The notes under the pieces are model-generated. The model did not search any database. It had not been told where the DNA came from and worked only from the letters and a program-made list of their open reading frames with translations. From assembly GCA_964621305.1 (NCBI GenBank), contig CAZUOM010000007.1, positions 5,422-69,421 on the forward strand: a stretch of 64,000 nucleotides of DNA, written 5' to 3'. Positions 3,654-54,322 of this stretch are shown in pieces (position 1 is the first letter of the stretch; each line of letters starts with the position of its first letter). The position numbers and the translations under genes are program-made. Origin of the DNA: an uncultured Gammaproteobacteria bacterium (GTDB taxonomy: Bacteria; Patescibacteriota; Microgenomatia; UBA10105; UBA927).

Positions 3654-3663
3654 GTCCTTAACA

Positions 3664-4257
3664 TTAGTCTCGTTGGGGTTTCCAAAAGTCTCTGCCTTGT
3701 ATGTCCCATGGCAGACGATGCTCGTCGGGGTTTTGTAGATCGAACTGCTCAGAAGCACAGTAGAGAATTGGTACCGGTTGACTGGTGAGATTAACGGATC
3801 CGTGTGCAACTCCTGCTGGTATCAGAAGCATCGTTGGTCCGGATTTACCCATCACGAGGCGAGATATGATGCCGTTGGTTGGAGACGTTTTCCTTATATC
3901 CCAGAGGCCAACGATAAGGTGCGCATCTGTTGGAACATACCAAAGCTCATCTTGAATGAAGTGGAGGTGCCAAGCTTTTATTGCACCAGGATACTGGAGG
4001 CTTCGGGATATTTGTCGGACATGAAAGCTTGGCATATCCTCAAGGTGGCCATGAGCGTTGAGTTTAAATATTTCAACAAAATCACTATCTTCTGACACGT
4101 GATGTGTGCGTGAAAGTGTTTCGACTCCGTGGATTGTCTTCGCATGTCCGTACGATTGGGTGTAGACGCTTTTGCGCACGGAGTCGTTTATGTCGTCGAT
4201 GGTGATGGGTCTATTCATTACCCTGTCATTATCCTTTACCGGAGCCATTTTCGTCAA
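3664..4257 (-). CDS. RmlC-like cupin (dTDP-4-dehydrorhamnose 3,5-epimerase family / sugar ketoisomerase)
   Basis: The cupin core WHLHFIQDELWYVPTDAHLIVGLWDIR...LLIPAGVAHGSVNL and the tail EHRLPWD match RmlC-type epimerases. The start may lie at a downstream Met. Confidence 0.65.
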   Translation of the reverse strand: MTKMAPVKDNDRVMNRPITIDDINDSVRKSVYTQSYGHAKTIHGVETLSRTHHVSEDSDFVEIFKLNAHGHLEDMPSFHVRQISRSLQYPGAIKAWHLHFIQDELWYVPTDAHLIVGLWDIRKTSPTNGIISRLVMGKSGPTMLLIPAGVAHGSVNLTSQPVPILYCASEQFDLQNPDEHRLPWDIQGRDFWKPQRD

Positions 4258-4445
4258 GCAGACTTTGGCTTGGTAGCAATAGCTATGATGCCAACACCTA
4301 ATGGTAGGTTGAAAAAGCGCAGAACGAAGGCTTCAGCAAAGAGAACGTGTGACAAGATGTTATTGATAAATCTTGGCAAGACAAGGATGCTTGATGTGTC
4401 AATTTTTGGGAGATGGAGGAAGCCAGCGATTGCGTTAAGCATCAT
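4254..4445 (-). CDS. Hypothetical small protein (63 aa) bridging the RmlC-like and methyltransferase genes
   Basis: This ORF fills the 184-bp gap and overlaps both neighbours by 4 bp. No recognisable domain was found. Confidence 0.2.
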   Translation of the reverse strand: MMLNAIAGFLHLPKIDTSSILVLPRFINNILSHVLFAEAFVLRFFNLPLGVGIIAIATKPKSA

Positions 4446-5011
4446 GACTGGAAAAAATACCGCGTTTGCGTATGAAAGTTTATTGATGTAAAAGCCTGAC
4501 GACAGCAGTTTTTTTGCAATCCGTTTTTGGTATAGCGTTCTCTTGTATGGACAAGTCGGTCATGAAACGTCATAAACAGAGGATGGGCGGGAACACGAAC
4601 AATGAGCAACCCCCCTGGTTTGAGTGTCCGGTAACATTCACGAAGTGCACGTTGGTCGTTGACAAGTCGGTGATATAAAACATCCATGCTTACAATCACG
4701 TCAAAAGAATTATTACGATAGGGAAGTTCGTTGACCGATGCGATACTAGCGTTGACATGAGCTGCTTTGGCAAGTTTTACCGCAATCGGAGAAATGTCTA
4801 TGGCATCCACTTGGCCAAACTTATTGAGGTCTTTGACCAGGTGACCAGTGCCACAGCCGGCATCGAGTATATGGAAAGAGTTCATGGGCAGGTGAGTGTG
4901 TAATTTTTGGAGATAGTTTTTAAGCAGTGAGACAATGATGGCACGATTACCTACGTAGTAGAAGTGACTTGCTTGACGTGTGGCAACAGCGTAGTATTCA
5001 GACGTTTTCAT
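4442..5011 (-). CDS. Class I SAM-dependent methyltransferase
   Basis: It carries motif I (ILDAGCGTGHL) and a post-I acidic residue (VDAIDIS), followed by SFDVIVS...LKPGGLLIV. Confidence 0.85.
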   Translation of the reverse strand: MKTSEYYAVATRQASHFYYVGNRAIIVSLLKNYLQKLHTHLPMNSFHILDAGCGTGHLVKDLNKFGQVDAIDISPIAVKLAKAAHVNASIASVNELPYRNNSFDVIVSMDVLYHRLVNDQRALRECYRTLKPGGLLIVRVPAHPLFMTFHDRLVHTRERYTKNGLQKNCCRQAFTSINFHTQTRYFFQS

Positions 5012-5040
5012 GATAATCGTATTGTATACTGACTGAAAGT

Positions 5041-5781
5041 ATGTTAAAAAGATCTAATATAGTGGTCGTGATGCCTGCGTACAACGCAGCACGCACGCTT
5101 GGTGAGACAGTAAGAGAGATCCCCAAAGGCTTTGCAAAAAAAATTATCCTCGTGGATGACGGATCAACCGACGGTACAGTTGCTTTGGCCAAAAGGCTGG
5201 GCATCACTGTCTTCGCTCATCCGGTAAATACCGGCTACGGCGGAAACCAAAAAACGTGCTACTGGGAGTCGCTTAAGTTCAAACCTGATGTTGTCGTTAT
5301 GCTTCACCCGGATTACCAGTATGACGGTAGCCGACTGCCGAACTTGGTAGCCCCCATTTTATCCGGAGAATGCGGCATGATGATAGGTTCACGGATTCGC
5401 ACTCGGCACGAAGCCCTCGTCGGCGGTATGCCGGTCGTGAAGTATTTTTTAAATAGAATTCTGACGACAATAGAAAATATGGTGTTGGGGGTAAATCTAT
5501 CCGAGCATCTATCGGGTCTGCGAGCGTATTCTAGAAACGTCATCATGACGGTCCCGTTTCAGCGATTCTCCAACGATTTTGTTTTTGACCAGCAGTTCCT
5601 TATCTCAACGTTAACCCATGGTTTTCTCGTCGGCGAAATTCCGGTCCCAGTCCGTTACCACGAGAAGGCTTCATCAATCGGCTACCTTGCTGGCACCAAA
5701 TTTTTGTTGGAAACATTTTGGTGCTTATTGTTGTATGTCCTCCATTCGTTTCGTATCTACCGATCGACCTGGTACGAGTGA
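5041..5781 (+). CDS. Family 2 glycosyltransferase
   Basis: Motifs include VVVMPAYNAARTL, ILVDDGSTDGT and YQYDGS..L (GT-A fold). Confidence 0.85.
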   Translation: MLKRSNIVVVMPAYNAARTLGETVREIPKGFAKKIILVDDGSTDGTVALAKRLGITVFAHPVNTGYGGNQKTCYWESLKFKPDVVVMLHPDYQYDGSRLPNLVAPILSGECGMMIGSRIRTRHEALVGGMPVVKYFLNRILTTIENMVLGVNLSEHLSGLRAYSRNVIMTVPFQRFSNDFVFDQQFLISTLTHGFLVGEIPVPVRYHEKASSIGYLAGTKFLLETFWCLLLYVLHSFRIYRSTWYE

Positions 5782-7275
5782 CGTATCGACGGCAACGACA
5801 GATACGTTTTCATCGGTAAATGTTGGCACAAGGAAACGATACTTATTGGTTGGTAAAGCTGAAAGCGGCTTTGTGTCGACTCCGAAGAGGACATAGTTGA
5901 CTTTTTGCTCCCGGACAAAATCGAGGGCATCTTCCTGGTTCATCCGGCCGTCGATAAACGCGAAGACGCGGTCACGAAGGGGGTAATAGTCGGCAACAGA
6001 GTCATCGCGGCCGATGACGCTTCGGTGTTTGGTAAACGCTGGGATCATTTGGCTCACATATTCCCCGGAGACAACAACGTGTTCGTTCGGAAACGTATTG
6101 AGAAAACGAAATGCAGAAAGTAGCGGCTTTGGGACGAACACATTGTAGGACGAAAGATTATGCGGTTTAAGGAGGGTCTTCATAGTGGTGACATATACTA
6201 TGACCCCATAGAGAAGGACTGCGGTGATAACGAGCGCACTAGCAAATTTCCTTATGAAAAAAACTGCAAGAAGAGTAATAGGGATGTATTGATAGGTCTG
6301 TAAAAGTCGCGAATAATTGATGGGCAAAACAGTTCCGACCAGCGGGAACAAAAGTATAGGTACATAGGCCCACGTGATAAGCGTTATAAAGACAAATGAG
6401 AGTTTTTTTCGCATAATCCATACGCCGATTGCTGACAGGGGAAAGAGCGGTCCGAGCGATAAGATATAGTTAAGGTACGTTGTCGGTGGATTAAAATGAA
6501 GCATTCGTTCGTACATAATCGACCAAGGTGGGACCGAGCCAAGAATAAACATAGTATAGAGAAGTATTGGCGAAGTGCTCACTAGGAGTATCATAAAATG
6601 CCGGCCCATGCGCTTTACGCTCGGGGCCAAAAACAGGAGCGAGAAAAGAAAAATGGAAGGGTTAAGAAGCGCAAGGCACCAACCGAGGACGACGGATCGG
6701 CCTAGACTTCGTTTTGCAAAGGCTATTATCATGCCCATCCAGGCTGCGAGTGCTAGCAGGTGATGCGGGGGCAGAGAGTATTTGGAGATAATGCCAAAGT
6801 GGTTGCTCCATGGGACGGTCTCAAACCCCGTGCCAAAAAGAAAAAGCAGCAATCCGATGGCGCGGCGCAATGTTGAAGGAAAGAGCATGCTCATCAATTG
6901 ATAAAGCGTGAAGAAAAACGCAAGGAGAGAGACTGCGCGTAGTACAAGGTAGGCTATCGGCGTAGAAAGATTAAAGAAGCCGGCGATGATACCGGTGATT
7001 GAAAAAAGGGGATGAACAAGCACATGGGGTTGGGCAGTGGCACGGTATCTGCTATCAAGGAGAACTTGTCCCAGTGACCCACTTTCGATCCATGAGAGAT
7101 ACTGGTAGTAGTCAGGGAGAAATCCTTCGGCAAATACGAATTCGGTATTGGGCGGACTGTTGCGCCACTGTATGATAGTAGAGATAAAGACGTTCCCAAA
7201 AACTATAGCGGTGAATAAGAGAAAATAGATTGACTTCATAAAAATACTTTTTTCGAACGTCAGTTTACCATACAA
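5725..7275 (-). CDS. Polytopic membrane protein of the YfhO-distant paralog family (putative GT-C glycosyltransferase)
   Basis: The product has more than 12 predicted TM helices. The conserved C-terminal domain (VVVSGEYVSQMIPAFTKHRSVIGRDD...) is shared with the ORFs at 1-780, 7275, 11683 and 31594. The N-terminus carries a DYYQYL motif. The start may be at 7239. Confidence 0.55.
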   Translation of the reverse strand: MYGKLTFEKSIFMKSIYFLLFTAIVFGNVFISTIIQWRNSPPNTEFVFAEGFLPDYYQYLSWIESGSLGQVLLDSRYRATAQPHVLVHPLFSITGIIAGFFNLSTPIAYLVLRAVSLLAFFFTLYQLMSMLFPSTLRRAIGLLLFLFGTGFETVPWSNHFGIISKYSLPPHHLLALAAWMGMIIAFAKRSLGRSVVLGWCLALLNPSIFLFSLLFLAPSVKRMGRHFMILLVSTSPILLYTMFILGSVPPWSIMYERMLHFNPPTTYLNYILSLGPLFPLSAIGVWIMRKKLSFVFITLITWAYVPILLFPLVGTVLPINYSRLLQTYQYIPITLLAVFFIRKFASALVITAVLLYGVIVYVTTMKTLLKPHNLSSYNVFVPKPLLSAFRFLNTFPNEHVVVSGEYVSQMIPAFTKHRSVIGRDDSVADYYPLRDRVFAFIDGRMNQEDALDFVREQKVNYVLFGVDTKPLSALPTNKYRFLVPTFTDENVSVVAVDTSLVPGRSVDTKRMEDIQQ

Positions 7276-8906
7276 TGTGGGATATCGTGAGGAGATACAT
7301 TTTTTCTTTGCTGATTCTGTTTTTTGTCGGATTTTCGTTGTGGCCGACTATCTATGAGATAGCTCGTCGTGACAGTATACAACCTAATCGAGCTTTTGAA
7401 CTTATCCACAACTTCCCGACGGACTATAACTTTTATCTTTCTCGAATCCGCCAGGGGATCGAAGGACGGACTATGGTGGTTGAACAATATACATCTGAGC
7501 CGCATGGGGGATCGTTGGTTCACATATTCTATCTTGCACTCGGTTGGATTGGGCGTTGGGTTCGCGTGCCTTGGGAGCGGGCAGGGGACGTATATCATAT
7601 AGCCAGAATTGTATTTGGTGTGACACTTCTTTGGCTCATGGCAATGTTTACAAAACAAGCATTTTCCCATTCTCGGTTTTCGATTGTTTCTTTTCTATTA
7701 GCAGTTACCGCCTCTACGTGGCCGACACTGGTATTTTACAACGGCGGGTGGCGGTTCGGAGGCTACATGCCCTGGTGGTCTCTGATGGATAGTCTCCAGA
7801 GGATCACGTTTATTCCCCATCTATTGGCTGGTCAGGCGCTGACTTTGTTTTTAGTGATGTCTACTTCAGACGACAAAGTTATGTCAAAAGGAGGCAACTG
7901 GATCTTCTTGGGGATACTTGCATTCGTTCTTGGCATCATTTTTCCTCCTGGATTGTTTTTTGTGCTCGTCGTCATGAGCATCGGGGAAGTATGGCATATA
8001 CGGAAGATATGGGGACGAATTCTTTCACGGGTAGTCATCTTTGGGTTGGCGCTTCCTGCGTTGGTTTACCTCCAGATGATAACGTCGTTTTATCCATGGA
8101 AGCGGTTGACGGAATTTGACATCATCAAACCACTTCCATTTAATTATCTCGAGTACTTTTTAGCAGTTGGGCCGTTGCTTCCTTTGGGATTGGTCGGATT
8201 AATCGCTGCTCTTATTCGGAGGGAAAAATCTATGATTCTATCGACGGCCTGGGTAGCCGCGTGGCTTTTCTTACTTTTTGCCTTCAGGTTTGTTCCTCAA
8301 CAGTCACCTCTACGGTTTTCAGAGATGATTCCTCACGTACCGCTGGCGGTTTTATCCTCTTATATTTTTTATAATCTTTACAATCGTTATAAACGCTATA
8401 ACCGTTATATTCTTCTTTTTCCGGCTACCATTATTGCAGTTGGTTTAGGGGTTATGCTTTCTTCTATTTGGTGGCAGCGAGATTTCATCGATCATAAAAT
8501 GAGCGCGTCCTATCCACTCGTTCCGACCGGTAGTTACGTCATGTACCCGCTCAAAGATTTTATTGCCGCAATGAAGTTTCTGCAGGATAGAACCACTAGA
8601 GATACAGTTATTTTTTCAGAAACAACAGCTGGCAACTACATGCCGGTATATAGCGGCAATACGGTATATGTTGGGCACGCCAATACTGTGAAAGCCGAGG
8701 AAAAAGAGATTATTGTCCGGCGGTTTTTCAGCGGTCAAATGAAAGTTGATGAGGCGAAAACCTGGCTTTTGCAAAACAATTTGCACTTTATTTTCTTTGG
8801 CCCACAGGAGAAAGAGGTGGGAGGAGTAGCGGAGTTGTCAAAAATTTATCCGTTCCTTAAATCTATTTACACCAATAATTTTGTTACTGTTTATAAAAGT
8901 CAATGA
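7275..8906 (+). CDS. Polytopic membrane protein of the YfhO-distant paralog family (putative GT-C glycosyltransferase)
   Basis: It has an N-terminal DYNFYLSRIRQG motif and a C-terminal family domain (VIFSETTAGNYMPVYSGNTVYVGH...). An in-frame 9-nt repeat tract lies at 8386-8412. Confidence 0.55.
   Translation: MWDIVRRYIFSLLILFFVGFSLWPTIYEIARRDSIQPNRAFELIHNFPTDYNFYLSRIRQGIEGRTMVVEQYTSEPHGGSLVHIFYLALGWIGRWVRVPWERAGDVYHIARIVFGVTLLWLMAMFTKQAFSHSRFSIVSFLLAVTASTWPTLVFYNGGWRFGGYMPWWSLMDSLQRITFIPHLLAGQALTLFLVMSTSDDKVMSKGGNWIFLGILAFVLGIIFPPGLFFVLVVMSIGEVWHIRKIWGRILSRVVIFGLALPALVYLQMITSFYPWKRLTEFDIIKPLPFNYLEYFLAVGPLLPLGLVGLIAALIRREKSMILSTAWVAAWLFLLFAFRFVPQQSPLRFSEMIPHVPLAVLSSYIFYNLYNRYKRYNRYILLFPATIIAVGLGVMLSSIWWQRDFIDHKMSASYPLVPTGSYVMYPLKDFIAAMKFLQDRTTRDTVIFSETTAGNYMPVYSGNTVYVGHANTVKAEEKEIIVRRFFSGQMKVDEAKTWLLQNNLHFIFFGPQEKEVGGVAELSKIYPFLKSIYTNNFVTVYKSQ
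8386..8412. repeat. 9-nt in-frame repeat x3 (CGTTATAAA-like) inside the membrane gene at 7275-8906
   Basis: Read directly from the sequence: cgttataaacgctataaccgttatatt. It encodes NRYKRYNRY. Confidence 0.8.
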
Positions 8907-9766
8907 AGTGTTACTTATGTCGCTGCCAAATGCAGACATTTATTAAAAAAAATGGTTACGAAATTTGGGATTGTCCTAATTGCGGCTTTAAGTCGACGGA
9001 TTTACACCAGGATTATAAGATTTTTGTTCAGAAATTTTATTCTCAGGAATATTTTACAGGCGATCCGACACGAGGTGCTTACTTTGATTACAAAAGAGAC
9101 AAACCCTACATAGTTCGAAACATGAAGAAAGTTCTTACAAAAATTAAGCTATATAAAAGAGGTGGCCGTTTGTTAGACGTTGGTTGTGCAATGGGATTTT
9201 TTGTCGAGCTAGCTTTGGATGCTGGATTTGACGCGTATGGCATAGACCCTTCACATTATGCAATTTCAAATCGCGCCGAAAATCTTAACGGAAGGCTGCA
9301 GATGGGAACAGTTGATACTATCCGTTTTGCCGCTAAATCTTTTGACGTGATTACCATGCTTGATGTCATCGAGCACTTACCAGATCCGAGAAGAGTTCTA
9401 AAGAAAGCACTTACTCTTCTTAAAGACGACGGAATTGTTGTCATCGCAACCGGTGATACAGATAGTGTATATGCAAAAATCTTTAAGCGACGCTGGACGT
9501 TTTACAATCCGCCCCAACACTTACATTTCTTTTCGCGCAGAATTTTCCTTAAGTTCTTGCTAGAAACCGGATTCAAACCTTTGACAACATTTATTATCGG
9601 AAAATGGTTAAGCTTGAGGTACGTATTGCACTTGGCAAAAACAGGAGCAGAAAGCATTTTTGCTGGCAGGCTTTCTTATTTAGTTAAAAAAATCAGAATT
9701 GACTGGCTGCCCCTTTTTTTGCCGGCGCGCGACAACTTCGTCGTTATTGCCAGAAAGACAAAGTGA
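8903..9766 (+). CDS. Class I SAM-dependent methyltransferase with an N-terminal Cys4 zinc ribbon
   Basis: The zinc ribbon is C-x2-C...C-x2-C (CRCQ...CPNCG). Motif I is LLDVGCAMGFF, and DVITMLDVIEHL is also present. Confidence 0.8.
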   Translation: MKCYLCRCQMQTFIKKNGYEIWDCPNCGFKSTDLHQDYKIFVQKFYSQEYFTGDPTRGAYFDYKRDKPYIVRNMKKVLTKIKLYKRGGRLLDVGCAMGFFVELALDAGFDAYGIDPSHYAISNRAENLNGRLQMGTVDTIRFAAKSFDVITMLDVIEHLPDPRRVLKKALTLLKDDGIVVIATGDTDSVYAKIFKRRWTFYNPPQHLHFFSRRIFLKFLLETGFKPLTTFIIGKWLSLRYVLHLAKTGAESIFAGRLSYLVKKIRIDWLPLFLPARDNFVVIARKTK

Positions 9767-11757
9767 GAAAGTTTTTTCTTCCGCTACTTCTATGCGGAGC
9801 CGTTGTAACTATCGTTTTTGGAAAAGCATTGTTTCCGGCGCCTGATCAGCTTATTTTTGGCGACGACGTACACCGGCAATATTATTTTTTTCGCCAGTAT
9901 TTTAATAATTCGATTCGCGAAGGGGCAGTCCCGTGGTGGAACCCGTATGTTTTTTCCGGTACTCCTTTTTTGGCAAATGCTCAAGTTTCGATGCTCTATC
10001 CCCTTAACTGGCTGTATGTAATTTTACCTCTTAATATCGCCTACTCTTGGTATTTTGCCATTCATGTTTTTATTGCCATGGTAACCATGTATTGGTTAGC
10101 CAAAGCGATGATGGGTAAAATATGCGGTTGGACCGCAGGAATTGTATTTGGACTGTCCGGTTATTTTATGGCTCGCACGATGGCAGGACAACCGGATGTT
10201 GTGGCTGCTGCCTCTTGGGCGCCTTTGGTTATCGGACTATTTATTAAAGTTATCAATGAAAAGACAGTAAGATCGATACTTCTTGCGGCAGCCGGGTTGG
10301 CAGTGCAGCTTTCAACAGGTTATCAAATCGTTACGCTTTTTACCTTAGAAGCGGTCGCGATCATTGTTTTTATCAACATTATTAAAGAGAAATCTTTACG
10401 TATGGCTTTACCGGTTATTGGAGCAGTTGTTCTTGCGTTGGGTTTGGCGGCAGTCCAACTTTTGCCTCAGCAAGAATTTTTCCGGCATTCAATTAGAACC
10501 GTTGATTTACCTTATAAATTTACAGCTAGTGGCGCCCATTCCCTGCGTGAGATGGTTACCCTTATTGACCCTTTTGCGCTGGGGGGCTATAACGACTATC
10601 AAGGATCTCCTCCCAATTATCACGAGCACGCCATTTATGTAGGAAAAGTAGCCCTTATTTTGGCTATCCTCGCGTTTGTTCTAGGTAGAGCTAAACCTTT
10701 TACACTCATTGCACTTTTTAGCGTCTGGGTATCGTTTGGGGCGAATGCGCCGGTAGATTTGCAATATCTTCTTTGGAAATTTACTCCGTTTTACCACTAC
10801 ATTCGTATCCCTTCCCGACACCTGGTTCTCTTTGTGTTAAGTGCCAGCATCCTTACCGGCTTTGGGTTGTCGCTTATTCGGAGTAGAGTAATCCAAATTT
10901 TTTTATCAGCAGTTATTATTCTTGAACTCGTGTTGGTTGGTCGAAATTTTATAGCTCTGGAAAAGTTACCAGAGTATCGGCATGATCAAGAACTTGTAAA
11001 CTTACTGAAATCAGATAGAGAGCTTTCTCGGGTTATCCAAAATTTTGGCGTGTGGGTGGTGCCGCGTGATAGGTTAGATTTTGGCAGCGCGATGAATTAT
11101 AAATTCTTTTCTGCAACCGGCTATGACCCATCGATTTTACGTAATTACTATGAATTTATAGACGCGGCTAATGGTGCTAAAGAGCCTAGCGTTATGAAGC
11201 ACAACGTGCAAGTTCCTTACTTAAACCCCAATTCTCCATACCTTAATTTTCTCAACATTAAATATGTTCTAGTGAACCCTGATTATGATCCGTTTGGAGG
11301 AAAATCAACTGATAGATTTAAATTAATCCTTGATAAAAAAGAAAAAACGTACAGGCTCTATGAAAATAAAGCCGTCCTTCCGCGATTCTTTTTATCAGAC
11401 TGCGGTGATACGGTTTCGGAACCGGTTGAAGTTAACAAATACTCAGGCAGTCAAATTGAACTAACTTCGAGTGCGACCTGTGATACAAAGCTTATATCAA
11501 GCGAAGTAATGTATCCTGGCTGGGAGGCAGCTATCGATGGCAGAAAGACCGCGGTATTAGCAACAAATCATGCGTTTCGATCGCTTCTAGTCCCGAAAGG
11601 CAGGCATAGCATAAAATTTTATTTTTTCCCACGAATTTACATCATTGGCGGTGTAATTTCTTTAGTGACTTTTCTAATTTGTTTACTTTTTTGGCACAAA
11701 GATAAAGAGGCCCGGGTTTTCATGGAAAACCTCAAGAAACGGATAAAATCTGTTTAG
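9763..11757 (+). CDS. YfhO-family membrane protein (GT-C type glycosyltransferase, 664 aa)
   Basis: It carries the canonical YfhO N-terminal signature (VHRQYYFFRQYF...GAVPWWNPYVFSGTPFLANAQVSMLYPLNW) and about 14 TM helices. Confidence 0.85.
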   Translation: MRKFFLPLLLCGAVVTIVFGKALFPAPDQLIFGDDVHRQYYFFRQYFNNSIREGAVPWWNPYVFSGTPFLANAQVSMLYPLNWLYVILPLNIAYSWYFAIHVFIAMVTMYWLAKAMMGKICGWTAGIVFGLSGYFMARTMAGQPDVVAAASWAPLVIGLFIKVINEKTVRSILLAAAGLAVQLSTGYQIVTLFTLEAVAIIVFINIIKEKSLRMALPVIGAVVLALGLAAVQLLPQQEFFRHSIRTVDLPYKFTASGAHSLREMVTLIDPFALGGYNDYQGSPPNYHEHAIYVGKVALILAILAFVLGRAKPFTLIALFSVWVSFGANAPVDLQYLLWKFTPFYHYIRIPSRHLVLFVLSASILTGFGLSLIRSRVIQIFLSAVIILELVLVGRNFIALEKLPEYRHDQELVNLLKSDRELSRVIQNFGVWVVPRDRLDFGSAMNYKFFSATGYDPSILRNYYEFIDAANGAKEPSVMKHNVQVPYLNPNSPYLNFLNIKYVLVNPDYDPFGGKSTDRFKLILDKKEKTYRLYENKAVLPRFFLSDCGDTVSEPVEVNKYSGSQIELTSSATCDTKLISSEVMYPGWEAAIDGRKTAVLATNHAFRSLLVPKGRHSIKFYFFPRIYIIGGVISLVTFLICLLFWHKDKEARVFMENLKKRIKSV

Positions 11758-13248: not shown

Positions 13249-15921
13249 ATGAGATATTCAAAGCTTATTGCTCTTTGTTCTTATGCGGTCATCGTCGTTA
13301 TTGTTTTTTCTCCTATTCTTTTTCCGCCGGCAGGTATGTTGTTATTCGGCAGTGATATCCACAGATCCTATCATTTTTTCCGGCAACTATTTCATGACTC
13401 TATTAGTACAGGACAATTTCCGTGGTGGAATCCGTACCTTTTTTCCGGAGAGCCACTAATCGCTAACCCCTCGGTTGCATTCTGGTACCCATTCAACTGG
13501 CTGTTTGCAGTTCTTCCGTACAGATTTGTTTACTCGTGGATTATTCCGATTCATATTTTTATTGCAATGACGGGAATGTACGTTTTTAGTTCAAAATTCA
13601 AAATTCAAAATTCAAAATTAGAAGAAAAGGTAGAAACACCATTTGATTTTGGTGCTTTTATTGCCGGTTTAATCTTTGGATTAAGTGGGTATTTCATGGG
13701 AAGGATTTGGGAAGGACATGTGGAGCTAATTCTTGCGGCAAGCTGGATGCCGTGGGTTATATTTACAAATGTCCAATGCCAAATGTCCAATGCCAAATGG
13801 AAAACACAATGTGTTATCGCAGCAGTTGTGTTTGCCATACAGCTTTATGCCGGGTATCACACCATTGCCTTATTTACACTAGAAGCGGTGTTAATTGTTA
13901 CATTGTTACACTGTTACATTGTTAAAAACATTAGGCCGCTTTTGCCGGCGATACTCTCTATAATCATTGGGTTAGGTTTGGCTGGACTTCAGATTATTCC
14001 CTCTCAGGAGTTTTTTAGTCGAAGCATTCGGACGTATGAACTTCCTTATTCATGGGCTGTCTTCGGTTCATACACGGTTGAAAACCTCAAGCAGATTTTT
14101 CAGCCGTTTATTCTGGGTGGGCCAGAGAGCTACAGCGGTCCAAGTCCCAATTTCGGTGAAATGGCGGCATACATCGGTGTTGTCCCGTTGGTGCTTGCTC
14201 TTCTTGGTATTGTGTGGGCAATAAAGCGCCGCGCGTGGATTTCAATTGCCATGATGGTTATTGCACTTTTTGGGTTATGGATTTCATTCGGTTGGAATGC
14301 TCCCGTGGATCTGAATAAAATCCTTTGGGACAGTGTCCCTACATATAAGTATCTGCGCATTCCGTCGCGGCACCTCATTCTTTTTGTTTTCGGTATGAGC
14401 TTCCTCGCCGGCGTCGGCCTTAGCTTCGCAAGGAGAGTCCTTGCGAAGCTAATTATTTCTCTGGTTATTGTTGTTGATCTGGTGTGGTTTGCTAAAACGT
14501 TTGTTACTCTTGCGCCCGATCCTTCCACACGGCACAGTAAAGAGCTTGTTGGTTATCTGCAAAAAAATTTGGGACTGGCGAGAATTTTGCCGAACTTTAA
14601 TGTCGGGATGGGAACGCGAGACGCTCTCGATTTCGATGCAGCAATGGGGTATAAATTTTTTTCCGCTTCCGGTTACGACCCGTCGATTCTGCGTAATTAC
14701 TACGAATTTGCGGCAGCCGCAGGGAAAATAGAAAACCCGGATGTCCAGCGAAGTGACGTTCAAATTCCATATCTAGTTCCCCAGTCTAGATACACTGACT
14801 TTCTTAATATCAAATATATTTTTGTTCCGTCGTGGTTTGACTCAGTTGCGGGATCATCAAAATTTTCTCCGGTGCTGGCAGAAAATATAAAAGATTTCTG
14901 GAAACTCTATGAAAATAAAAACATCTTTCCTCGGTTCTTTCTTGCGCCGTCGCTTGTAGTTTTCCCGACTCGAGACGGTGTTGCCCGGGCAATAAGAAAC
15001 GAGGATTATAATCCATCGGAGACAATATTGGTTGAAAGTTCAAGTATCAAAAATCAAAGTTTTTCACCAAGCTGTTTAGAAAAAAACCTTCCTCCTCCCG
15101 AAGTGCTTTCCTATTCTTACAATCGGATCGAGCTACTTACAAGTTCCTCATGTAATGCCTTTCTGGCAACTAGTGAGGTGATGTATCCCGGCTGGAGTGC
15201 AACTATTGACGGGAAAAAAACAGAGATTTTCGAGGGAAACCTTGCCTTTCGAACGCTCTGGGTGCCGGCGGGGGAACACAACATTGTTTTACAATATCAA
15301 CCCTGGATTTTTGTCGTAGGTTTTTTCGTGAGCATTGCGACAGTGGCAGGGTGTTTGATTTGGACCAAAAAGTCGGCACACAGTGTATTGGTGGTTCTGG
15401 ATCGGGACGGAACACTTATCAGAAACGAAGGATTTATTGGACGTGGAGACAAATGGATGAGTGAACTTGTCATTAATGCGCCTGTAGTGTGTTTTCTTTC
15501 TTATATACAATCCAAATATAAAACGATGATGATAGTTGTTAGCAATCAATCGGGCGTGGCCAGAGGGTATTTTGACGAAAAGCGAATCCGTGAGGTCAAC
15601 GAAGCAATCAATGAGCTTTTGAAAAAACAAGGCATTACCATAGATGGTTGGCAGTTTTGTCCGGATGTGGATGCGGTCTACGCGAAGGCTCGGCCCGAAA
15701 TTTTTTGGAACAAGCAGTACGTGAAAACGGCGACGAAACGAAAACCAGCAACCAAAATGGTTGACGACGCGCTTGGGCAACTTGGCAAAAAGATCGGAGA
15801 TTTTGACACGACGATTGTTTTAGGCAATAGCGAAGATGACGCGGAACTTGCCCGGGTCCTTGGCGCTGTCTGGATTGATGTCCGTGGGGCTAGCTATGAG
15901 AAGCTTGTTGCGTATCTATGA
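13249..15921 (+). CDS. YfhO-family membrane protein fused to a C-terminal GmhB-like HAD-IIIA phosphatase domain
   Basis: The N-terminal ~690 aa form a YfhO domain (HRSYHFFRQLF...FPWWNPYLFSGEPLIANPS). The C-terminus carries DRDGTLI, VVSNQSGVARGYF and ..CPD.., typical of D,D-heptose-1,7-bisphosphate / histidinol phosphatase HADs. The gene contains three short tandem repeat tracts. Confidence 0.8.
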   Translation: MRYSKLIALCSYAVIVVIVFSPILFPPAGMLLFGSDIHRSYHFFRQLFHDSISTGQFPWWNPYLFSGEPLIANPSVAFWYPFNWLFAVLPYRFVYSWIIPIHIFIAMTGMYVFSSKFKIQNSKLEEKVETPFDFGAFIAGLIFGLSGYFMGRIWEGHVELILAASWMPWVIFTNVQCQMSNAKWKTQCVIAAVVFAIQLYAGYHTIALFTLEAVLIVTLLHCYIVKNIRPLLPAILSIIIGLGLAGLQIIPSQEFFSRSIRTYELPYSWAVFGSYTVENLKQIFQPFILGGPESYSGPSPNFGEMAAYIGVVPLVLALLGIVWAIKRRAWISIAMMVIALFGLWISFGWNAPVDLNKILWDSVPTYKYLRIPSRHLILFVFGMSFLAGVGLSFARRVLAKLIISLVIVVDLVWFAKTFVTLAPDPSTRHSKELVGYLQKNLGLARILPNFNVGMGTRDALDFDAAMGYKFFSASGYDPSILRNYYEFAAAAGKIENPDVQRSDVQIPYLVPQSRYTDFLNIKYIFVPSWFDSVAGSSKFSPVLAENIKDFWKLYENKNIFPRFFLAPSLVVFPTRDGVARAIRNEDYNPSETILVESSSIKNQSFSPSCLEKNLPPPEVLSYSYNRIELLTSSSCNAFLATSEVMYPGWSATIDGKKTEIFEGNLAFRTLWVPAGEHNIVLQYQPWIFVVGFFVSIATVAGCLIWTKKSAHSVLVVLDRDGTLIRNEGFIGRGDKWMSELVINAPVVCFLSYIQSKYKTMMIVVSNQSGVARGYFDEKRIREVNEAINELLKKQGITIDGWQFCPDVDAVYAKARPEIFWNKQYVKTATKRKPATKMVDDALGQLGKKIGDFDTTIVLGNSEDDAELARVLGAVWIDVRGASYEKLVAYL
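13591..13618. repeat. (TCAAAAT)x4 heptanucleotide tandem repeat inside the YfhO-HAD gene
   Basis: Read directly from the sequence: ttcaaaattcaaaattcaaaatta. Confidence 0.9.
13768..13801. repeat. 14-nt unit (AAATGTCCAATGCC) x2.4, built from two imperfect heptamers, inside the YfhO-HAD gene
   Basis: Read directly from the sequence: aaatgtccaatgccaaatgtccaatgccaaatgg. Confidence 0.9.
13894..13925. repeat. (ATTGTTAC)x4 octanucleotide tandem repeat inside the YfhO-HAD gene
   Basis: Read directly from the sequence: attgttacattgttacactgttacattgttaa. Confidence 0.85.
15337..15921 (+). other. HAD-IIIA (GmhB/histidinol-phosphatase-like) phosphatase domain at the C-terminus of the YfhO fusion
   Basis: Motif I is DRDGT, motif II is SNQSG, and the Zn-site-like region is QFCPD. 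The domain follows the last TM helix, so it is predicted to be cytoplasmic. Confidence 0.7.
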
Positions 15922-18107
15922 AACTCCTCTTTCCGTTTTTGGCCTACGCAGTCGTCGTTCTTTTTGTATTTGATAAGGCATTGTATCCGAGTCAGAACGA
16001 AGTTATCTTCGGCCCGGATATCTGGCGATACCACTATTTTCAGCGTCCGTTCCTGGGCGAGTCGTTTCGAAGTGGCATCGTCCCATGGTGGAACCCGTAT
16101 ATCATGGGCGGTCAGCCATATCTGGAGCAGCCGCAGATTACGACGTGGTATTTACCAAACCTACTCTTTACGATCTTGCCAGCAAACAGGGCCATTTCTT
16201 GGTACTTGGCCCTTCATATTTTCTGGGCGATGGCGGGGATATACTTATTCATTTCAAATTTCAAATTTCAAATTTCAAATTTAGCTGCGTGGGCGGCAGG
16301 GATTGCATTTGGTCTGTCGGGGTATTTTGCTGCACGGATCTACGCCGGACACATTGACATAATTGCGGCATCAAGTTGGTTGCCGTGGGTGATCGCTTCG
16401 GTTGTCAGTTGTCAGGCGTCAGTTGTCAGTAGAAAAAGAAATTGTGTTATTACGGCAATATTTTTTGCCATGATGCTGTTGGCCGGGCATCAGATGGTAG
16501 CCGTGTACACGGTTGAGGCAATTGGGGTAGCGGCATTGGTTTATGCAGTTGTCCAACGGTCGCTCCGGCCACTTGTGATTTCAACCGTTTCCATCGCATT
16601 GGGTTTGGGCCTTGCGGCAATTCAGATTCTCCCCAATCATCAGCTCATTGCCAACAGCATCCGGACGATTCAACTGCCGGAAGCATGGTCCGTCATCGCC
16701 ACCCCAACCGCCGCGCACTTTCTTGAGTTTATCGACCCAACGTTCTTCTACGACCGACTGCCTGATGTAGGCTTGGGACACGAACACGTCGGCTACATCG
16801 GGAAAGTGCCTTTGTTGTTTGCAATCACCACAATCCTCTTTTTCTTTCTCCGGCGGAAAAAATCTGTTGAAATTTTGATCCTTATCATCCTGTCAATATT
16901 CAGCTTGTGGGTGTGGCTCGGACCAAACGCTCCGGTTGATATGTTTGCCGTCATGCGAAAAATCCTGCCGCTCTATGGACAGATCCGGATCCCGTCCCGG
17001 CATATTGTGTTGTTTATTTTGGCGGCAAGTGCCTTGTTTGGCATCGGGATGAGCAGGGTAAAAAACACCGTCGTCAGGCTGCTGCTTTGTGCGCTGGTGC
17101 TTCTTGATCTTATTCCGTTTGCGCGGGCAAATATCCATTTGGGTCAGATACCGGAAACACGGGAAGATGGGGAATTGGTCGCATTGCTTGCGGGTGATGA
17201 GGGATTATACCGGTTCCTGCCGGATTTTTACCATGGGCAACCGTTGCGGGACGCGTTGGAGTTTGATGCTCCGATAACCAAGCGCATATTCTCCGTTTCC
17301 GGCTACGAAACGCCGCCACTGCGAAACTATTGGGAGTTTTTGTTGGCAGTCAACAACCTGGATATTGCAAAAAACCTAGATTATATTGAAACGACACCAC
17401 CGTTTATAAATATTACTTCACCGTATCTAAATTTTCTTAACGTCAAATACATTCTTACTCCCACCGGGAGTGATTCTTTAGATGCATACCCTCGTCAATT
17501 TTCCCAAATAAAAGAGAATAAAGATCGTGGATATCGGGTTTATGAAAATAAAGAGGTTTTGCCGAGATTTTATTTTGTGCAAAATGCGGTTGTTGCTGCG
17601 CGGGCTACCATTGACGAAGCCATACGCGGGGGGAGCGGCGATCCCGGGACGATGGTCTATTTGGAACAGGAAACGATGCCTATCCCACGGCCGTGTTCGC
17701 AGACCACGACCCCAACAGTATCCGTAACAACCTATCAATCCGACCGGATTCTGTTGCAAATATCCAATCCGTGCGATTCGTATCTGGTTTCATCAGAAGT
17801 CATGTATCCCGGGTGGATGGCAACCATTGACGGGAAGGAAACAAAAATTGCGGTAGGCAATCTCGCGTTCCGGACGATCTTCGTGCCGGCTGGAGACCAT
17901 ATAGTCCAAATGCAGTATCGCCCCCGCATCGTGTACCTCGGTGCGCTCGTAAGTTTGGTTAGTCTTGTTGTTTTTTTCTGGTTGATCTATGATGACGGTC
18001 ATGGAATCGCAGTCAGGAAAAGTTTGCACACTTCGTCAGCTGGGCACAATCACCCAGCGTCTGAAGAAAGCCGGAAAAAAGATTGTTCTTTGCCATGGAG
18101 TGTTTGA
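15918..18107 (+). CDS. YfhO-family membrane protein (third tandem paralog)
   Basis: It carries the signature IWRYHYFQRPF...GIVPWWNPYIMGGQPYLEQPQITTWYLPN. It contains heptamer repeat tracts at 16254-16281 and 16401-16430. Its 3' end overlaps the next gene by about 118 nt. Confidence 0.8.
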   Translation: MKLLFPFLAYAVVVLFVFDKALYPSQNEVIFGPDIWRYHYFQRPFLGESFRSGIVPWWNPYIMGGQPYLEQPQITTWYLPNLLFTILPANRAISWYLALHIFWAMAGIYLFISNFKFQISNLAAWAAGIAFGLSGYFAARIYAGHIDIIAASSWLPWVIASVVSCQASVVSRKRNCVITAIFFAMMLLAGHQMVAVYTVEAIGVAALVYAVVQRSLRPLVISTVSIALGLGLAAIQILPNHQLIANSIRTIQLPEAWSVIATPTAAHFLEFIDPTFFYDRLPDVGLGHEHVGYIGKVPLLFAITTILFFFLRRKKSVEILILIILSIFSLWVWLGPNAPVDMFAVMRKILPLYGQIRIPSRHIVLFILAASALFGIGMSRVKNTVVRLLLCALVLLDLIPFARANIHLGQIPETREDGELVALLAGDEGLYRFLPDFYHGQPLRDALEFDAPITKRIFSVSGYETPPLRNYWEFLLAVNNLDIAKNLDYIETTPPFINITSPYLNFLNVKYILTPTGSDSLDAYPRQFSQIKENKDRGYRVYENKEVLPRFYFVQNAVVAARATIDEAIRGGSGDPGTMVYLEQETMPIPRPCSQTTTPTVSVTTYQSDRILLQISNPCDSYLVSSEVMYPGWMATIDGKETKIAVGNLAFRTIFVPAGDHIVQMQYRPRIVYLGALVSLVSLVVFFWLIYDDGHGIAVRKSLHTSSAGHNHPASEESRKKDCSLPWSV
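16254..16281. repeat. (TCAAATT)x4, i.e. a TTCAAAT heptamer tract, inside the third YfhO gene
   Basis: Read directly from the sequence: atttcaaatttcaaatttcaaatttcaaattt. It encodes ISNFKFQISN. Confidence 0.9.
16401..16430. repeat. (GTTGTCA)x4 heptamer tract (one imperfect copy) inside the third YfhO gene
   Basis: Read directly from the sequence: gttgtcagttgtcaggcgtcagttgtcagt. Confidence 0.85.
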
Positions 18108-19536
18108 TCTAGTACACCCCGGACACATCCGCTATTTTTCCTCTGCCAAAAAACACGGCGACATTCTCGTGGTAACACTCACGGCTGACCGGTTCGTCAG
18201 AAAAGGGCCGGGGCGGCCGGTATTTAACGAAAAACTCCGCGCAGAGTTTCTGGCAGCCATAGAGCTTGTTGACTATATCGCAGTTAGCAACAGTTACAGC
18301 GCAACGGTTGCCATCCAGGCTATCCGGCCAGACGTTTATGTGAAAGGCCCGGACTACAAATATCGAAAGCCCAACCCTTCTGTCTCCAGAAATCTCGGGA
18401 ATGAGGAAGCGGCGGTTGTCTCCGGCGGGGGAAAGCTCGTGTTCACCGATGACGTATTATTTTCCTCTTCTCATCTCATCAATGAATATATGGACGTATA
18501 CGATAAAAAAACGAAAGGTTTTTTGGATCAGCTTAAAACAACATATAGCGACGAATATTTGATTAAAAAACTCTGTTCAGTCAAACCGATAAAGGTTTTG
18601 ATTATAGGGGATGCGATTGTTGATCAGTATGTCTACTCTAATCCATTAGGAAAATCTTACAAGGAGCCGATTGTGGTCCACAAGTATTTAGAAGAAGAGA
18701 CATATGCAGGTGGGGCACTAGCAACGGCTAATCACGTAGCTGCGCTGTCGGATCACGTGAGGCTCGTGACCCTATTGGGTTCAAAACATTCCCACGAGCC
18801 GTTCATACGAAGACATTTACGAGTGGGCATCGTACCGAAATTTTTTTATCGAAGCGGCGAGTCAACCATTGTGAAGCGCCGCTATATTGATCAATATACT
18901 AACCAGAAGCTTTTTCAAATTAGTTATATCAACGATGAAGACATATCATTAGCACTTCAACGATCGGTTATGACATATTTAAAAAGGGAAATTCCCAAAC
19001 ACGATGTTGTGATAGTCAATGACTTTGGACACGGTTTTTTAACAACAAATATCATCGGATTAGTGTGCAAAGCATCCAAGTTTCTGTGTCTAAATGTGCA
19101 GGCAAATAGTGCCAACTACGGATTTCATATCATTACGAAATATCCGAGAGCGGATTTTGTCTGCATCGATGACCTAGAATTACGACTGGCTACCCACGAT
19201 CGCTCTGGTGAACAAGGAGCACTCATGAAACGGGTCTACGATAGGCTCCATTGTCAAACTATATTGGTGACCCGCGGGCCGTATGGGAGTACGATCTACT
19301 CTAAAAAAAGAGGGTGCCATGATGTACCATCTTTTGCCGGTTCCATTGTCGACCGCATGGGTGCTGGTGACGCACTTTTTTCTATCGTTTCGCCCTTGGC
19401 TTATTTGGGTGTTGCACAAAAAGCGATTGCCTTTATAGGCAACGTTGCTGCTGCTTTAAAAATTCAGACCGTGGGCAATAGAACACCGATTGATTTTATG
19501 GAGCTGACGAAATTTATTACCAGACTGCTCAAATAA
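17989..19536 (+). CDS. Bifunctional sugar-phosphate nucleotidyltransferase (cytidylyltransferase-like, RfaE domain II type) and PfkB-family sugar kinase. It is HldE-like but with the domain order reversed.
   Basis: The N-terminus shows the (H/T)xGH nucleotidyltransferase motif (IVLCHGVFDLVHPGHIRYF). The C-terminus shows a PfkB kinase signature (VLIIGDAIVDQY... GAGDALFS). Confidence 0.75.
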   Translation: MMTVMESQSGKVCTLRQLGTITQRLKKAGKKIVLCHGVFDLVHPGHIRYFSSAKKHGDILVVTLTADRFVRKGPGRPVFNEKLRAEFLAAIELVDYIAVSNSYSATVAIQAIRPDVYVKGPDYKYRKPNPSVSRNLGNEEAAVVSGGGKLVFTDDVLFSSSHLINEYMDVYDKKTKGFLDQLKTTYSDEYLIKKLCSVKPIKVLIIGDAIVDQYVYSNPLGKSYKEPIVVHKYLEEETYAGGALATANHVAALSDHVRLVTLLGSKHSHEPFIRRHLRVGIVPKFFYRSGESTIVKRRYIDQYTNQKLFQISYINDEDISLALQRSVMTYLKREIPKHDVVIVNDFGHGFLTTNIIGLVCKASKFLCLNVQANSANYGFHIITKYPRADFVCIDDLELRLATHDRSGEQGALMKRVYDRLHCQTILVTRGPYGSTIYSKKRGCHDVPSFAGSIVDRMGAGDALFSIVSPLAYLGVAQKAIAFIGNVAAALKIQTVGNRTPIDFMELTKFITRLLK

Positions 19537-20516
19537 TGATGAAAAACGTATTAGTTACTGGCGGGGCAGGATATATAGGAGCGTTATTGGTGCCACAATT
19601 ACTATCCCGCGGGTACTACGTAACAGTTCTTGATTTATTCCTTTATGGAGACGCGTTGGCAAAACACAAGAATCTTACTTTGGTAAAAGGCGATATCAGT
19701 GATAGGATGGTCATCGGGGAGACCTTACCCGGCGTTGACTGCGTCATTCACCTAGCGTGCATCTCTAACGATCCGAGCTTTGAGTTGAATCCGAAATTAG
19801 GAAAGTCAGTTAATCATGACGCAACCATTCAGCTTATTGACTTAGCCAAAACGGCAAGGGTTAAGCGTTTTATATATGCTTCAAGTTCCAGCGTCTACGG
19901 CGTCAAAAAAGAAAAAGATGTAACAGAAGATTTGCCTCTTGCGCCGCTGACGGATTATTCAAAGTATAAAGCGTTGTGTGAGGAGTATGTTTTGAAAAGT
20001 CAATCAAAAAATTTTACGACAGTGGTTTTGCGACCTGCTACAGTATGTGGGTTTTCTCCCCGGATGCGGCTTGATTTAACCGTGAACATGCTTACGATAC
20101 ATGCATTGGTGAATAAAAAAATTATCGTTTTTGGCGGGTCGCAACTCCGGCCTAACATTCATATAGCTGACATGTGCCGGGCATATGAGTTATTTTTGGA
20201 AGCTCCCGGTGAGTCGATTTCAGGAAAAATATTTAACGTAGGATATCAAAATCTTACTGTTATGGAAATTGCAAAAATGGTAAAACGAGTGCTTGCGGAT
20301 CGTTCGATAAAAATTGAAGTAAAACCAACCAACGATTTGCGCTCCTATCACATTTCTTCTGAAAAAATCAAAAAAGAACTGGGGTTTGTGCCGAAACACA
20401 CGGTTGAGGAAGCAATCATGGACATAAAGAAAGCATACGATCGCGGCTTTCTGCCGGACGCATTGACTGATAAACGATACTACAATATCCAGATGATGAA
20501 GTCAGTAACACTTTAA
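19536..20516 (+). CDS. NAD(P)-dependent sugar epimerase/dehydratase (extended SDR). It could be an HldD-like heptose 6-epimerase or a UDP-sugar epimerase.
   Basis: It has the Rossmann motif VLVTGGAGYIGALL, and YxxxK lies inside YSKYKALCEEY. Confidence 0.8.
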   Translation: MMKNVLVTGGAGYIGALLVPQLLSRGYYVTVLDLFLYGDALAKHKNLTLVKGDISDRMVIGETLPGVDCVIHLACISNDPSFELNPKLGKSVNHDATIQLIDLAKTARVKRFIYASSSSVYGVKKEKDVTEDLPLAPLTDYSKYKALCEEYVLKSQSKNFTTVVLRPATVCGFSPRMRLDLTVNMLTIHALVNKKIIVFGGSQLRPNIHIADMCRAYELFLEAPGESISGKIFNVGYQNLTVMEIAKMVKRVLADRSIKIEVKPTNDLRSYHISSEKIKKELGFVPKHTVEEAIMDIKKAYDRGFLPDALTDKRYYNIQMMKSVTL

Positions 20517-39315: not shown

Positions 39316-39350
39316 ATTAGGATACTGATTACTTGCCCCAACAAACCTCA

Positions 39351-52029: not shown

Positions 52030-52031
52030 CT

Positions 52032-54310: not shown

Positions 54311-54322
54311 TAAAAAGATTCT

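Follow-up and report, generated by a model that had tools for sequence, protein, structure and literature searches.

A 64,000-nucleotide stretch of contig CAZUOM010000007.1 (assembly GCA_964621305.1, positions 5,422 to 69,421; hereafter the window) carries tandem arrays of 7–9-nt units inside genes for envelope glycosylation, among them two adjacent genes of the YfhO family, here named Y2 and Y3. The source is an uncultured bacterium of the candidate phyla radiation (CPR), a group with small genomes; the analysis assigned it to Candidatus Gottesmanbacteria, as contig SBBN01000017.1 of the metagenome-assembled genome GCA_005239695.1. The arrays lie in frame, occupy hot-spot loops shared with orthologues and keep their length between species while their units change in concert. 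They are probably long simple sequence repeats (SSRs) of the heptanucleotide class, with units of 7–9 nt, which selection keeps in frame in insertion-tolerant loops, and thus tolerated repeat DNA rather than switches. An earlier note on this DNA had taken those of Y2 and Y3 for candidate phase-variation switches with the structure of classic contingency loci. The capacity to shift the frame was seen once, in a related locus (L130), but the behaviour of a classic contingency locus was not, array length being conserved and OFF alleles rare.

Arrays in the YfhO genes and across the window

Y2 (13249–15921, forward strand) encodes a YfhO-family GT-C glycosyltransferase with a fused C-terminal HAD-IIIA/GmhB-like phosphatase domain. 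It scores 38.2 bits against Pfam YfhO (PF09586, cutoff 28.5) and 60.5 bits against TIGR01662 (HAD-IIIA, cutoff 44.6), and its closest homologues are annotated as YfhO. Y3 (15918–18107, forward strand), of the same family, scores 42.5 bits against PF09586, and its AlphaFold model (predicted local distance difference test score, pLDDT, 88; predicted template modelling score, pTM, 0.89) matched the GT-C enzymes AftD, ArnT, AglB and DPY19 in Foldseek (E values 4e-8 to 3e-4). Profile scores above cutoff and a GT-C fold thus place the host genes in the YfhO/GT-C group. The HAD-IIIA, GmhB-like domain of Y2 (window 15349–15921) is missing from every orthologue found.

All five tracts named in the earlier note were recovered by Tandem Repeats Finder (TRF) and by direct reading of the sequence. 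Y2 carries three. At site 1 (13590–13619, forward strand), TTCAAAA is repeated 4.3 times with 100% match and encodes SSKFKIQNSKL. At site 2 (13766–13799, forward strand), 4.9 CAAATGT-type heptamers encode TNVQCQMSNAKW; here TRF scored a perfect repeat at period 14 (CAAATGTCCAATGC, 2.4 copies) and a 74% match at period 7, because units 2 and 4 carry the identical two substitutions. The 14-mer seen previously is therefore present, but it is perfect, and only its 7-nt sub-period is imperfect. At site 3 (13889–13924, forward strand), the supposed heptamer proved to be an octamer, TGTTACAT, repeated 4.6 times at 89% match and encoding VLIVTLLHCYIVK. Y3 carries ATTTCAA at site 1 (16251–16282, forward strand; 4.6 copies, 100%; peptide ISNFKFQISNL) and GTTGTCA at site 2 (16401–16430, forward strand; 4.3 copies, 82%; peptide VVSCQASVVS). 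Copy number in the two genes is thus 4.3–4.9 units; a single gene holds as many as three tracts, and some tracts lie in mid-gene or toward the 3′ part. As had been proposed, the tracts directly follow conserved motifs, and both open reading frames (ORFs) can currently be read through them. The YfhO paralogue at 9763–11757 (forward strand), an internal control for both loops, has no arrays and ordinary sequence at both corresponding places.

The arrays extend beyond the pair of paralogues to which they had been assigned: three other glycosylation genes carry five more. A PMT_2-type membrane glycosyltransferase gene (29979–31604, reverse strand; identified with Pfam) contains an octamer array (30510–30542, 4.1 copies) and a nonamer array (30704–30740, 4.1 copies), both from TRF. 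A gene for a polytopic membrane protein without a Pfam match (31594–33102, reverse strand) contains an array at 32053–32085 (sense unit TCAAATT, 4.7 copies; peptide KFKISNFKFQI). A gene for a GT2 glycosyltransferase with a C-terminal membrane hairpin (39333–40364, forward strand) contains two perfect arrays, AAAGTGC at 39485–39517 (4.7 copies) and ATATCAA at 40149–40180 (4.6 copies). The window total is therefore ten arrays of period 7, 8 or 9 in five genes, plus a 9/18-nt array in a sixth (TTATAATCG, 4.6 copies by TRF; 8369–8414, forward strand), which lies inside an unannotated membrane-protein ORF at 7275–8906. All are in frame. By TRF, seven arrays have a period of 7 nt and two of 8 nt, with 9 nt only at 30704–30740 and 8369–8414, and tracts measure about 30–37 nt (around 32 nt each). 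A simple detector found seven arrays in the window and none in each of 20 dinucleotide-preserving shuffles. The sense unit TCAAAWW is common to four arrays in three non-homologous gene families, and the ten arrays comprise at least eight different units. The arrays thus belong to the region as a whole rather than to a pair of paralogues, and are probably genome-wide in the source organism.

Two of the arrays, at 16251–16282 and 32053–32085, lie 15.8 kb apart and are inverted copies of one ATTTCAA array, identical over 26 nt; both are translated in sense, one in Y3 and the other in the gene of the 31594–33102 membrane protein. A recombination event that joined the two would turn the intervening segment around and exchange the halves of these genes.

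In the AlphaFold model of Y3, array 1 forms the end of helix 89–113 and turn 114–120, and array 2 the end of helix 155–167 and turn 168–171. If the first long loop and the C-terminal beta domain lie outside, the arrangement of GT-C enzymes, helix parity would assign both turns to the cytoplasmic side, and site 3 as well; the basic residues that follow the array turns fit this placement. If the predicted topology holds, the array loops would not be surface epitopes.

Length conservation and concerted change in related loci and other phyla

The nearest Y2 orthologue shares 65% identity, so the searched collections contained no strain-level relatives of the window organism; a metagenome scan for close relatives likewise returned mostly distant YfhO genes (22–43% identity) and no strain-level variants. 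Related loci of Gottesmanbacteria carry arrays of the same kind, of period 7 (some 8 or 9), with 4.3–4.9 copies, many of them perfect and within long ORFs. At the matching loops orthologues encode repeat peptides such as MSNVKCQMSNV, ISNFKFQISN and VISNFQFPISN, while others have plain loops or long inserts resembling palindromic elements. Orthologues retain the repetitive DNA, rather than the peptide without it.

We measured loop lengths between conserved anchor motifs. Site 2 spans exactly 24 codons, with the array in an identical register, in three species (Y2 and its counterparts in L002 and L005); the array is a perfect (CAAATGT)x4.9 in L002, has one mismatch in L005 and is perfect at period 14 in Y2. 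Site 3 spans 15 codons between anchors in every homologue, with or without the octamer array. At site 1, two genes with an AATGTCA array have 18 codons, the array being perfect in one and bearing three substitutions in the other, and the Y3 site 1 array is also present in both YfhO paralogues of L003. One unit occurs at two sites of a single L002 gene. The two Y3 loops exceed those of the shortest homologue (P0279) by about 10 and 9 residues, while site 3 is unchanged, which indicates that arrays are net insertions in some cases and in others replace sequence already there, at constant length. In GT2 genes, site B holds a 33-nt array at matching codons in two species whose flanking genes are ~74% identical; one species has a perfect (AATGTCA)x4.7, and the other an A>C change in four of five units. 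These conserved registers and lengths, together with unit changes that are in phase, indicate that the arrays are old, held at constant length and homogenized internally. A comparison of orthologues for tract length and frame, as the earlier note had advised, thus found arrays and frame to be shared but no variation in length between species of 61–65% protein identity.

The same loops are hot spots for other sequence. Across 51 GT2 orthologues (64–82% identity to the window protein), the alignment is near-invariant except in two segments, which are the two array sites, and nearly every orthologue has at both a different repeat-type peptide of different length or an insert resembling a palindromic element. 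Site A lies in the catalytic domain, which in GT2 enzymes faces the cytoplasm. Palindromic mini-elements lie in frame in hot-spot loops at L003 8623–11031, L129 10136–10220, L130 3880–4000 and L135 2460–2580, and also in proteins P0003, P0006, P0008 and P0041, some nested inside heptamer arrays. Their peptides (…SFSHHQGPNHSPSHHSFFTKAVMMLETSRLPARE…, …PRRRGSSIFQIRDSGSRAGMT… and …LRQGFGGQV…, the last from a 27-nt insert) resemble in-frame Rickettsia palindromic element (RPE)-like or small dispersed repeats. In L125 and L129, at about 10900–10945 (GT2 codons ~300–315), a conserved transmembrane segment, …CYYPLVIVYWSLVIL…, is encoded by array-like DNA (CATTGGT, 4.6 copies, 85%) that does not differ between two species, and this helix-coding stretch may descend from an old array.

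Among close alleles we found no length change. None occurred among seven alleles of one array-carrying YfhO gene (one allele on 16 contigs from four sources) or among 16 alleles of another, in clusters of at least 90% identity that are small samples of consensus assemblies. In the 16-allele cluster, substitutions that recur across alleles fall mainly in the two loops. No gaps were found across three arrays, including a 9-mer of 8.3 copies, in four contigs of 99.97–100% identity that came from replicate groundwater samples and from unrelated sequencing runs. The length polymorphism that a switch would be expected to show among related strains was thus absent, and on that count the switch proposal is largely refuted. 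We rejected an assembly artefact as the source of the arrays: the tracts are far shorter than usual final assembler k-mers, preserve the frame and recur in independent assemblies.

Arrays of this type are widespread. A scan for (ATTTCAA)x3 in one genome per species returned at least 118 stretches; among the matches listed were many CPR lineages, Planctomycetota, Acidobacteriota, Nitrospirota, Bacteroidota, Verrucomicrobiota, Gammaproteobacteria, Cyanobacteria and Firmicutes. In the 818 kb surrounding these listed matches, TRF counted 208 arrays of period 7, 27 of period 8, 21 of period 9 and one each of periods 5 and 6, and 98 of the 208 heptamer arrays had other, diverse units. Period 7 dominates in ~1.2 Mb of loci from many phyla. 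Within long ORFs, seed arrays among the listed matches were in sense in 63 cases and in antisense in none, since an antisense reading meets a stop within 21 nt. Among the non-seed arrays of at least three copies around the same matches, 4.x copies were found in 50 of 87 coding arrays (57%) and in 37 of 119 non-coding arrays (31%; P = 2e-4, Fisher exact test), whereas five or more copies were found in 16 of 87 and 46 of 119, respectively (P = 0.002). In viral contigs, coding arrays reached at most 32 nt for ATTTCAA, with one 44-nt case for the same-composition control unit AATATTC, and non-coding arrays up to 66 nt. Stretches of the two units were similarly frequent there (33 for ATTTCAA against 29 for AATATTC), and with 98 arrays of other units alongside in the survey we rejected ATTTCAA as a special mobile or functional sequence.

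These observations best support the following mechanism. Replication misalignment in a 7–9-nt register would create and homogenize the arrays through unit duplication, unit loss and copying within the array, and purifying selection would remove versions that shift the frame, add a stop or harm the fold. The survivors would be in-frame, stop-free (and so sense) arrays of 4.x copies in short turns that join transmembrane helices or, in the GT2 domain, in a variable segment of its surface, where they would add or overwrite about 10 loop residues with no function of their own required. Selection for stop-free, in-frame versions in tolerant turns would explain the sense-only orientation, the hot spots and the depletion of long arrays in genes. 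Substitutions that spread through an array at constant length may reflect intra-array copying, by slip-copy-realign events or by conversion, and slips of a single unit would be rare and gene-inactivating, that is, deleterious or pseudogenizing mutations rather than a regulated switch. In Escherichia coli, loops of 7–9 nt escape MutS-dependent repair, and this escape may partly account for the accumulation of such units. A possible reason for the sharp 4.x class is that three units added to a founding one make the smallest expansion that leaves the frame intact; an origin by '+21 nt' in this simple form was set aside, as loop-length comparisons do not fit it cleanly.

Loss of frame and rival explanations

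Disruption at the hot-spot loops was found in about four of about 110 YfhO homologues, only one of them by loss of a whole unit. In L130, exactly one 8-nt unit has been lost at site 1 and the gene is frameshifted (GGG AATTATCC AATAATCA AATTATCC AATG, against an extra AATAATCC in L005), which bears out, here for an 8-nt unit, the earlier point that 7-nt units cannot change in number without a shift of frame. In L131, the frame is lost at site 2 through deletion of 1 nt from a hexamer tract; coverage there is 2.7x, so the deletion may be an error. The other two disruptions are a nonsense codon and a frameshift, each inside a palindromic-type insert. A YfhO gene in L212 was left out of the count, as it has frameshifts throughout, suggesting long-read assembly errors. 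Among ~360 surveyed heptamer arrays from many phyla there was no gene split by a whole-unit frame change; four candidates from an automated search were rejected when inspection showed them to be intergenic or at gene ends. Both YfhO paralogues of the L130 groundwater contig are broken (3332–5749, by a TAG in a palindromic-type insert; 6276–8490, by the 8-nt unit loss), which suggests that redundant YfhO copies are under relaxed selection there.

We weighed four other explanations against tolerated, frame-kept repeats. If the arrays were contingency loci, gain and loss of units by slipped-strand mispairing would turn the glycosyltransferases OFF and ON and vary the envelope glycan, perhaps at a low rate. 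Such loci need non-triplet units in genes, and here units of 7 and 8 nt lie in frame in ORFs for envelope glycosylation; arrays that stay perfect over evolutionary time imply ongoing unit turnover, the L130 orthologue has lost its frame by exactly one unit, and permissive SSR screens accept as few as three heptamer units (PMC2651432). However, copy number is fixed at 4.x across species, and near-identical alleles and contigs show no polymorphism, as far as consensus assemblies and small samples of close relatives reveal it. ON and OFF alleles are not both common, given the single disruption by unit change and the lack of frame-splits. The tracts also fall short of a hypermutable length as judged by two heptanucleotide switches: 4.3–4.9 units here, against 3–53 (mode 20) in the neuO gene of E. 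coli K1, which is OFF in 66% of genomes, and 13–38 copies in the heptanucleotide tracts of hmw promoters. Up to three tracts sit in one gene, some of them mid-gene or near its 3′ end, and the YfhO loops are predicted to face the cytoplasm. Arrays behave alike in the cytoplasmic catalytic domain of GT2 and in non-envelope genes, and the class extends to genes unrelated to these, to intergenic DNA, to many phyla and to viral contigs. We therefore regard low-rate switching as unlikely.

Less likely still is a dedicated or mobile process that writes arrays of ~32 nt, either a small mobile element or an enzyme copying a 7-nt template, so that the arrays would be insertions rather than products of local slippage. 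The narrow size mode of 31–33 nt, non-coding DNA included, speaks for it, as do the unit shared by two sites of one L002 gene, the unit shared by non-homologous window genes (Y3, the 31594–33102 protein and GT2), the residues that Y3 has gained over its shortest homologue and the entry of small palindromic mini-elements into the same hot spots. Units are nonetheless extremely diverse, none being privileged, site 3 has not changed in length, orthologous arrays are inherited vertically in one register, and no associated gene is present at every locus, the sole recurrent neighbour, a Y1 transposase gene, occurring in three related loci and not in the window. We give a small probability to cis-acting sites in DNA or mRNA, read for example by a cold-shock-type, S1-type or other oligomeric heptamer-reading protein, which could co-regulate glycosylation genes. 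Nucleotide-level perfection is retained while flanking codons diverge, TAACTGA heptamer repeats have been proposed to be regulatory, and binding of CspB to heptamer repeats has been demonstrated (PMC4679880); yet the ten window arrays comprise at least eight units, the unit at one site differs between orthologues, arrays with arbitrary units occur in many phyla and viruses, and no regulator candidate was identified. Selection on the encoded peptide, a conserved loop motif such as ISNFKFQISN with DNA periodicity as a by-product, appears the least probable. Similar site 1 peptides do recur in several orthologues, but such selection would not need perfect periodicity at synonymous positions, peptides at one site are wholly different between orthologues, other homologues manage with unrelated plain or minimal loops, and no orthologue was seen that keeps the peptide with scrambled codons.

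Several observations count against tolerated repeat DNA. That arrays stay perfectly homogeneous and strictly constant in length over deep divergence could mean that the DNA, RNA or peptide has a selected function. Non-coding arrays also peak near 31–33 nt, although more weakly and partly at the detection floor, and constraint from a reading frame cannot account for that mode there. Net loop gains of 0, +3, +6, +9–10 and +13 residues, by site and reference, give no clean rule of +7 residues. Every window array is in an envelope glycosylation gene, as a contingency model would predict, L130 has one true whole-unit OFF allele, and consensus assemblies hide minority variants. A broader alternative, also unlikely, is that ~30-nt stretches of genes and spacers are overwritten into heptamer arrays by a templated, length-preserving process, not described before, in many bacterial phyla and their viruses; for conserved CPR enzymes it would be a major origin of new loops, with occasional slips of one unit acting as a low-rate ON/OFF switch of envelope glycosylation. 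The overwriting could proceed by slip-copy-realign in a 7-nt register or through a dedicated enzyme.

Neighbouring features, related repeats and significance

Downstream of the YfhO genes, 17989–20516 encodes an HldE-like kinase/adenylyltransferase, its domains in swapped order, and an SDR epimerase. With the phosphatase domain fused to Y2, these genes suggest a heptose nucleotide-sugar pathway tied to the YfhO transferases of the window. An IS200/IS605-type Y1 transposase gene adjoins the YfhO cluster in three related loci (L005 15621–16337, L130 8509–9225 and L212 5247–5972); none was seen in the window. A 9-mer array similar to that at 8369–8414 lies at L003 3514–3553, in an ORF whose place in the gene order matches that of ORF 7275–8906, a correspondence of position only. 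In L125, an intergenic nonamer array (ATTGGTCTG, 8.3 copies; 9925–10000) lies directly upstream of the GT2 gene and is identical in four sampled contigs; a related nonamer (AATCCGACC / ATTGGTCGG) occurs in inverted orientation on either side of the neighbouring gene. At 46221–56700 the window holds eight consecutive same-strand ORFs without a Pfam match, seven of them mutually paralogous (for example, 47401–48558 and 49711–52029 share 53% identity, the latter being a fusion of two domains). Each begins with a segment that resembles a signal anchor, consistent with a tandem family of secreted or anchored proteins, function unassigned. No tRNA or Rfam match was found anywhere in the window.

RPEs, said to have been described by Ogata et al. 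in 2000, are reportedly dispersed in-frame palindromic elements of ~100–150 bp inside protein-coding genes. Like the arrays, they would be repeat DNA, selfish or neutral, whose survival in genes depends on an in-frame position in surface segments that tolerate it, and palindromic mini-inserts share the orthologue loops here; they differ in being palindromic rather than tandem heptamers. In-gene repeats of Borgs reportedly have units divisible by three and a variable copy number. The seven window arrays of period 7 and two of period 8 differ from that triplet rule, which only the two of period 9 follow, and with 7- or 8-nt units only particular total lengths are viable. Borg repeats resemble the arrays in being perfect in-ORF repeats that add new, probably unstructured residues and evolve fast (PMC9879509).

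The closest known class is that of long SSRs with units of 5–11 nt, LSSR(5–11). As far as the work of Mrazek et al. (2007) is relayed by PMC4679880 and PMC4692102, heptanucleotides are the most abundant long SSR class of prokaryotes and are proposed to arise by polymerase slippage, in-gene units are mainly triplet multiples with non-triplet units mainly outside genes, and LSSR(5–11) occur mostly in large genomes (Mrazek, Guo & Shah 2007). The arrays share with that account short-unit iterations beyond chance, a predominance of period 7, a scattered phylogeny and slippage as the proposed origin. They depart from it, again as relayed there, in lying inside ORFs of a CPR bacterium, frame-locked at ~4.5 copies in conserved hot-spot loops, with length conserved between species; nor is the non-triplet class mostly non-coding here, as all ten window arrays are coding and 159 of 361 surveyed heptamer arrays lie within long ORFs. 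Other heptamer repeats, such as the Calothrix short tandemly repeated repetitive (STRR) sequences, GGGGA(T/C)T in Nostoc and GGGAATC in Xanthomonas (PMC4692102), and TAACTGA in Beggiatoaceae (PMC4679880), are likewise dispersed short arrays, typically of 2–6 copies and sometimes in inverted pairs, with function unassigned and scattered across phyla. They comprise one or few units per genome and are mostly intergenic, whereas here many units lie in genes and are translated.

The O-acetyltransferase NeuO of E. coli K1 is a true switch with a coding heptanucleotide tract, (AAGACTC)n, in an enzyme that modifies an envelope glycan; all three phases are translated and unit number sets the frame. It has one tract, at the 5′ end, with 3–53 repeats; the gene is OFF in 65.6% of 64 genomes, and ±1-unit variants make up 7% within a single culture (PMC13001214). 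The tracts described here, at 4.3–4.9 copies, are conserved between species, almost always ON and placed several per gene at internal loops, a pattern close to the opposite of NeuO.

The heptanucleotide long SSR class itself is known; what is new is its presence, in frame and with conserved length, inside conserved CPR enzymes. Non-triplet microsatellites can persist for long periods inside conserved enzymes if they stay in one frame-compatible size class, and can be homogenized without a change in length. For annotation, repeat peptides such as ISNFKFQISN and NVKCQMSNV are translated satellites and not motifs, and SSR screens for phase variation at a three-unit threshold would return many false positives in such genomes. 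As to mutational mechanism, the finding bears on the reason for the preference for period 7. Known CPR members live attached to host cells, and their surface chemistry is little known. To our knowledge, no contingency system has previously been described in these bacteria, and phase variation, if true, would be the first. The arrays mark loops where these proteins accept almost any ten residues.

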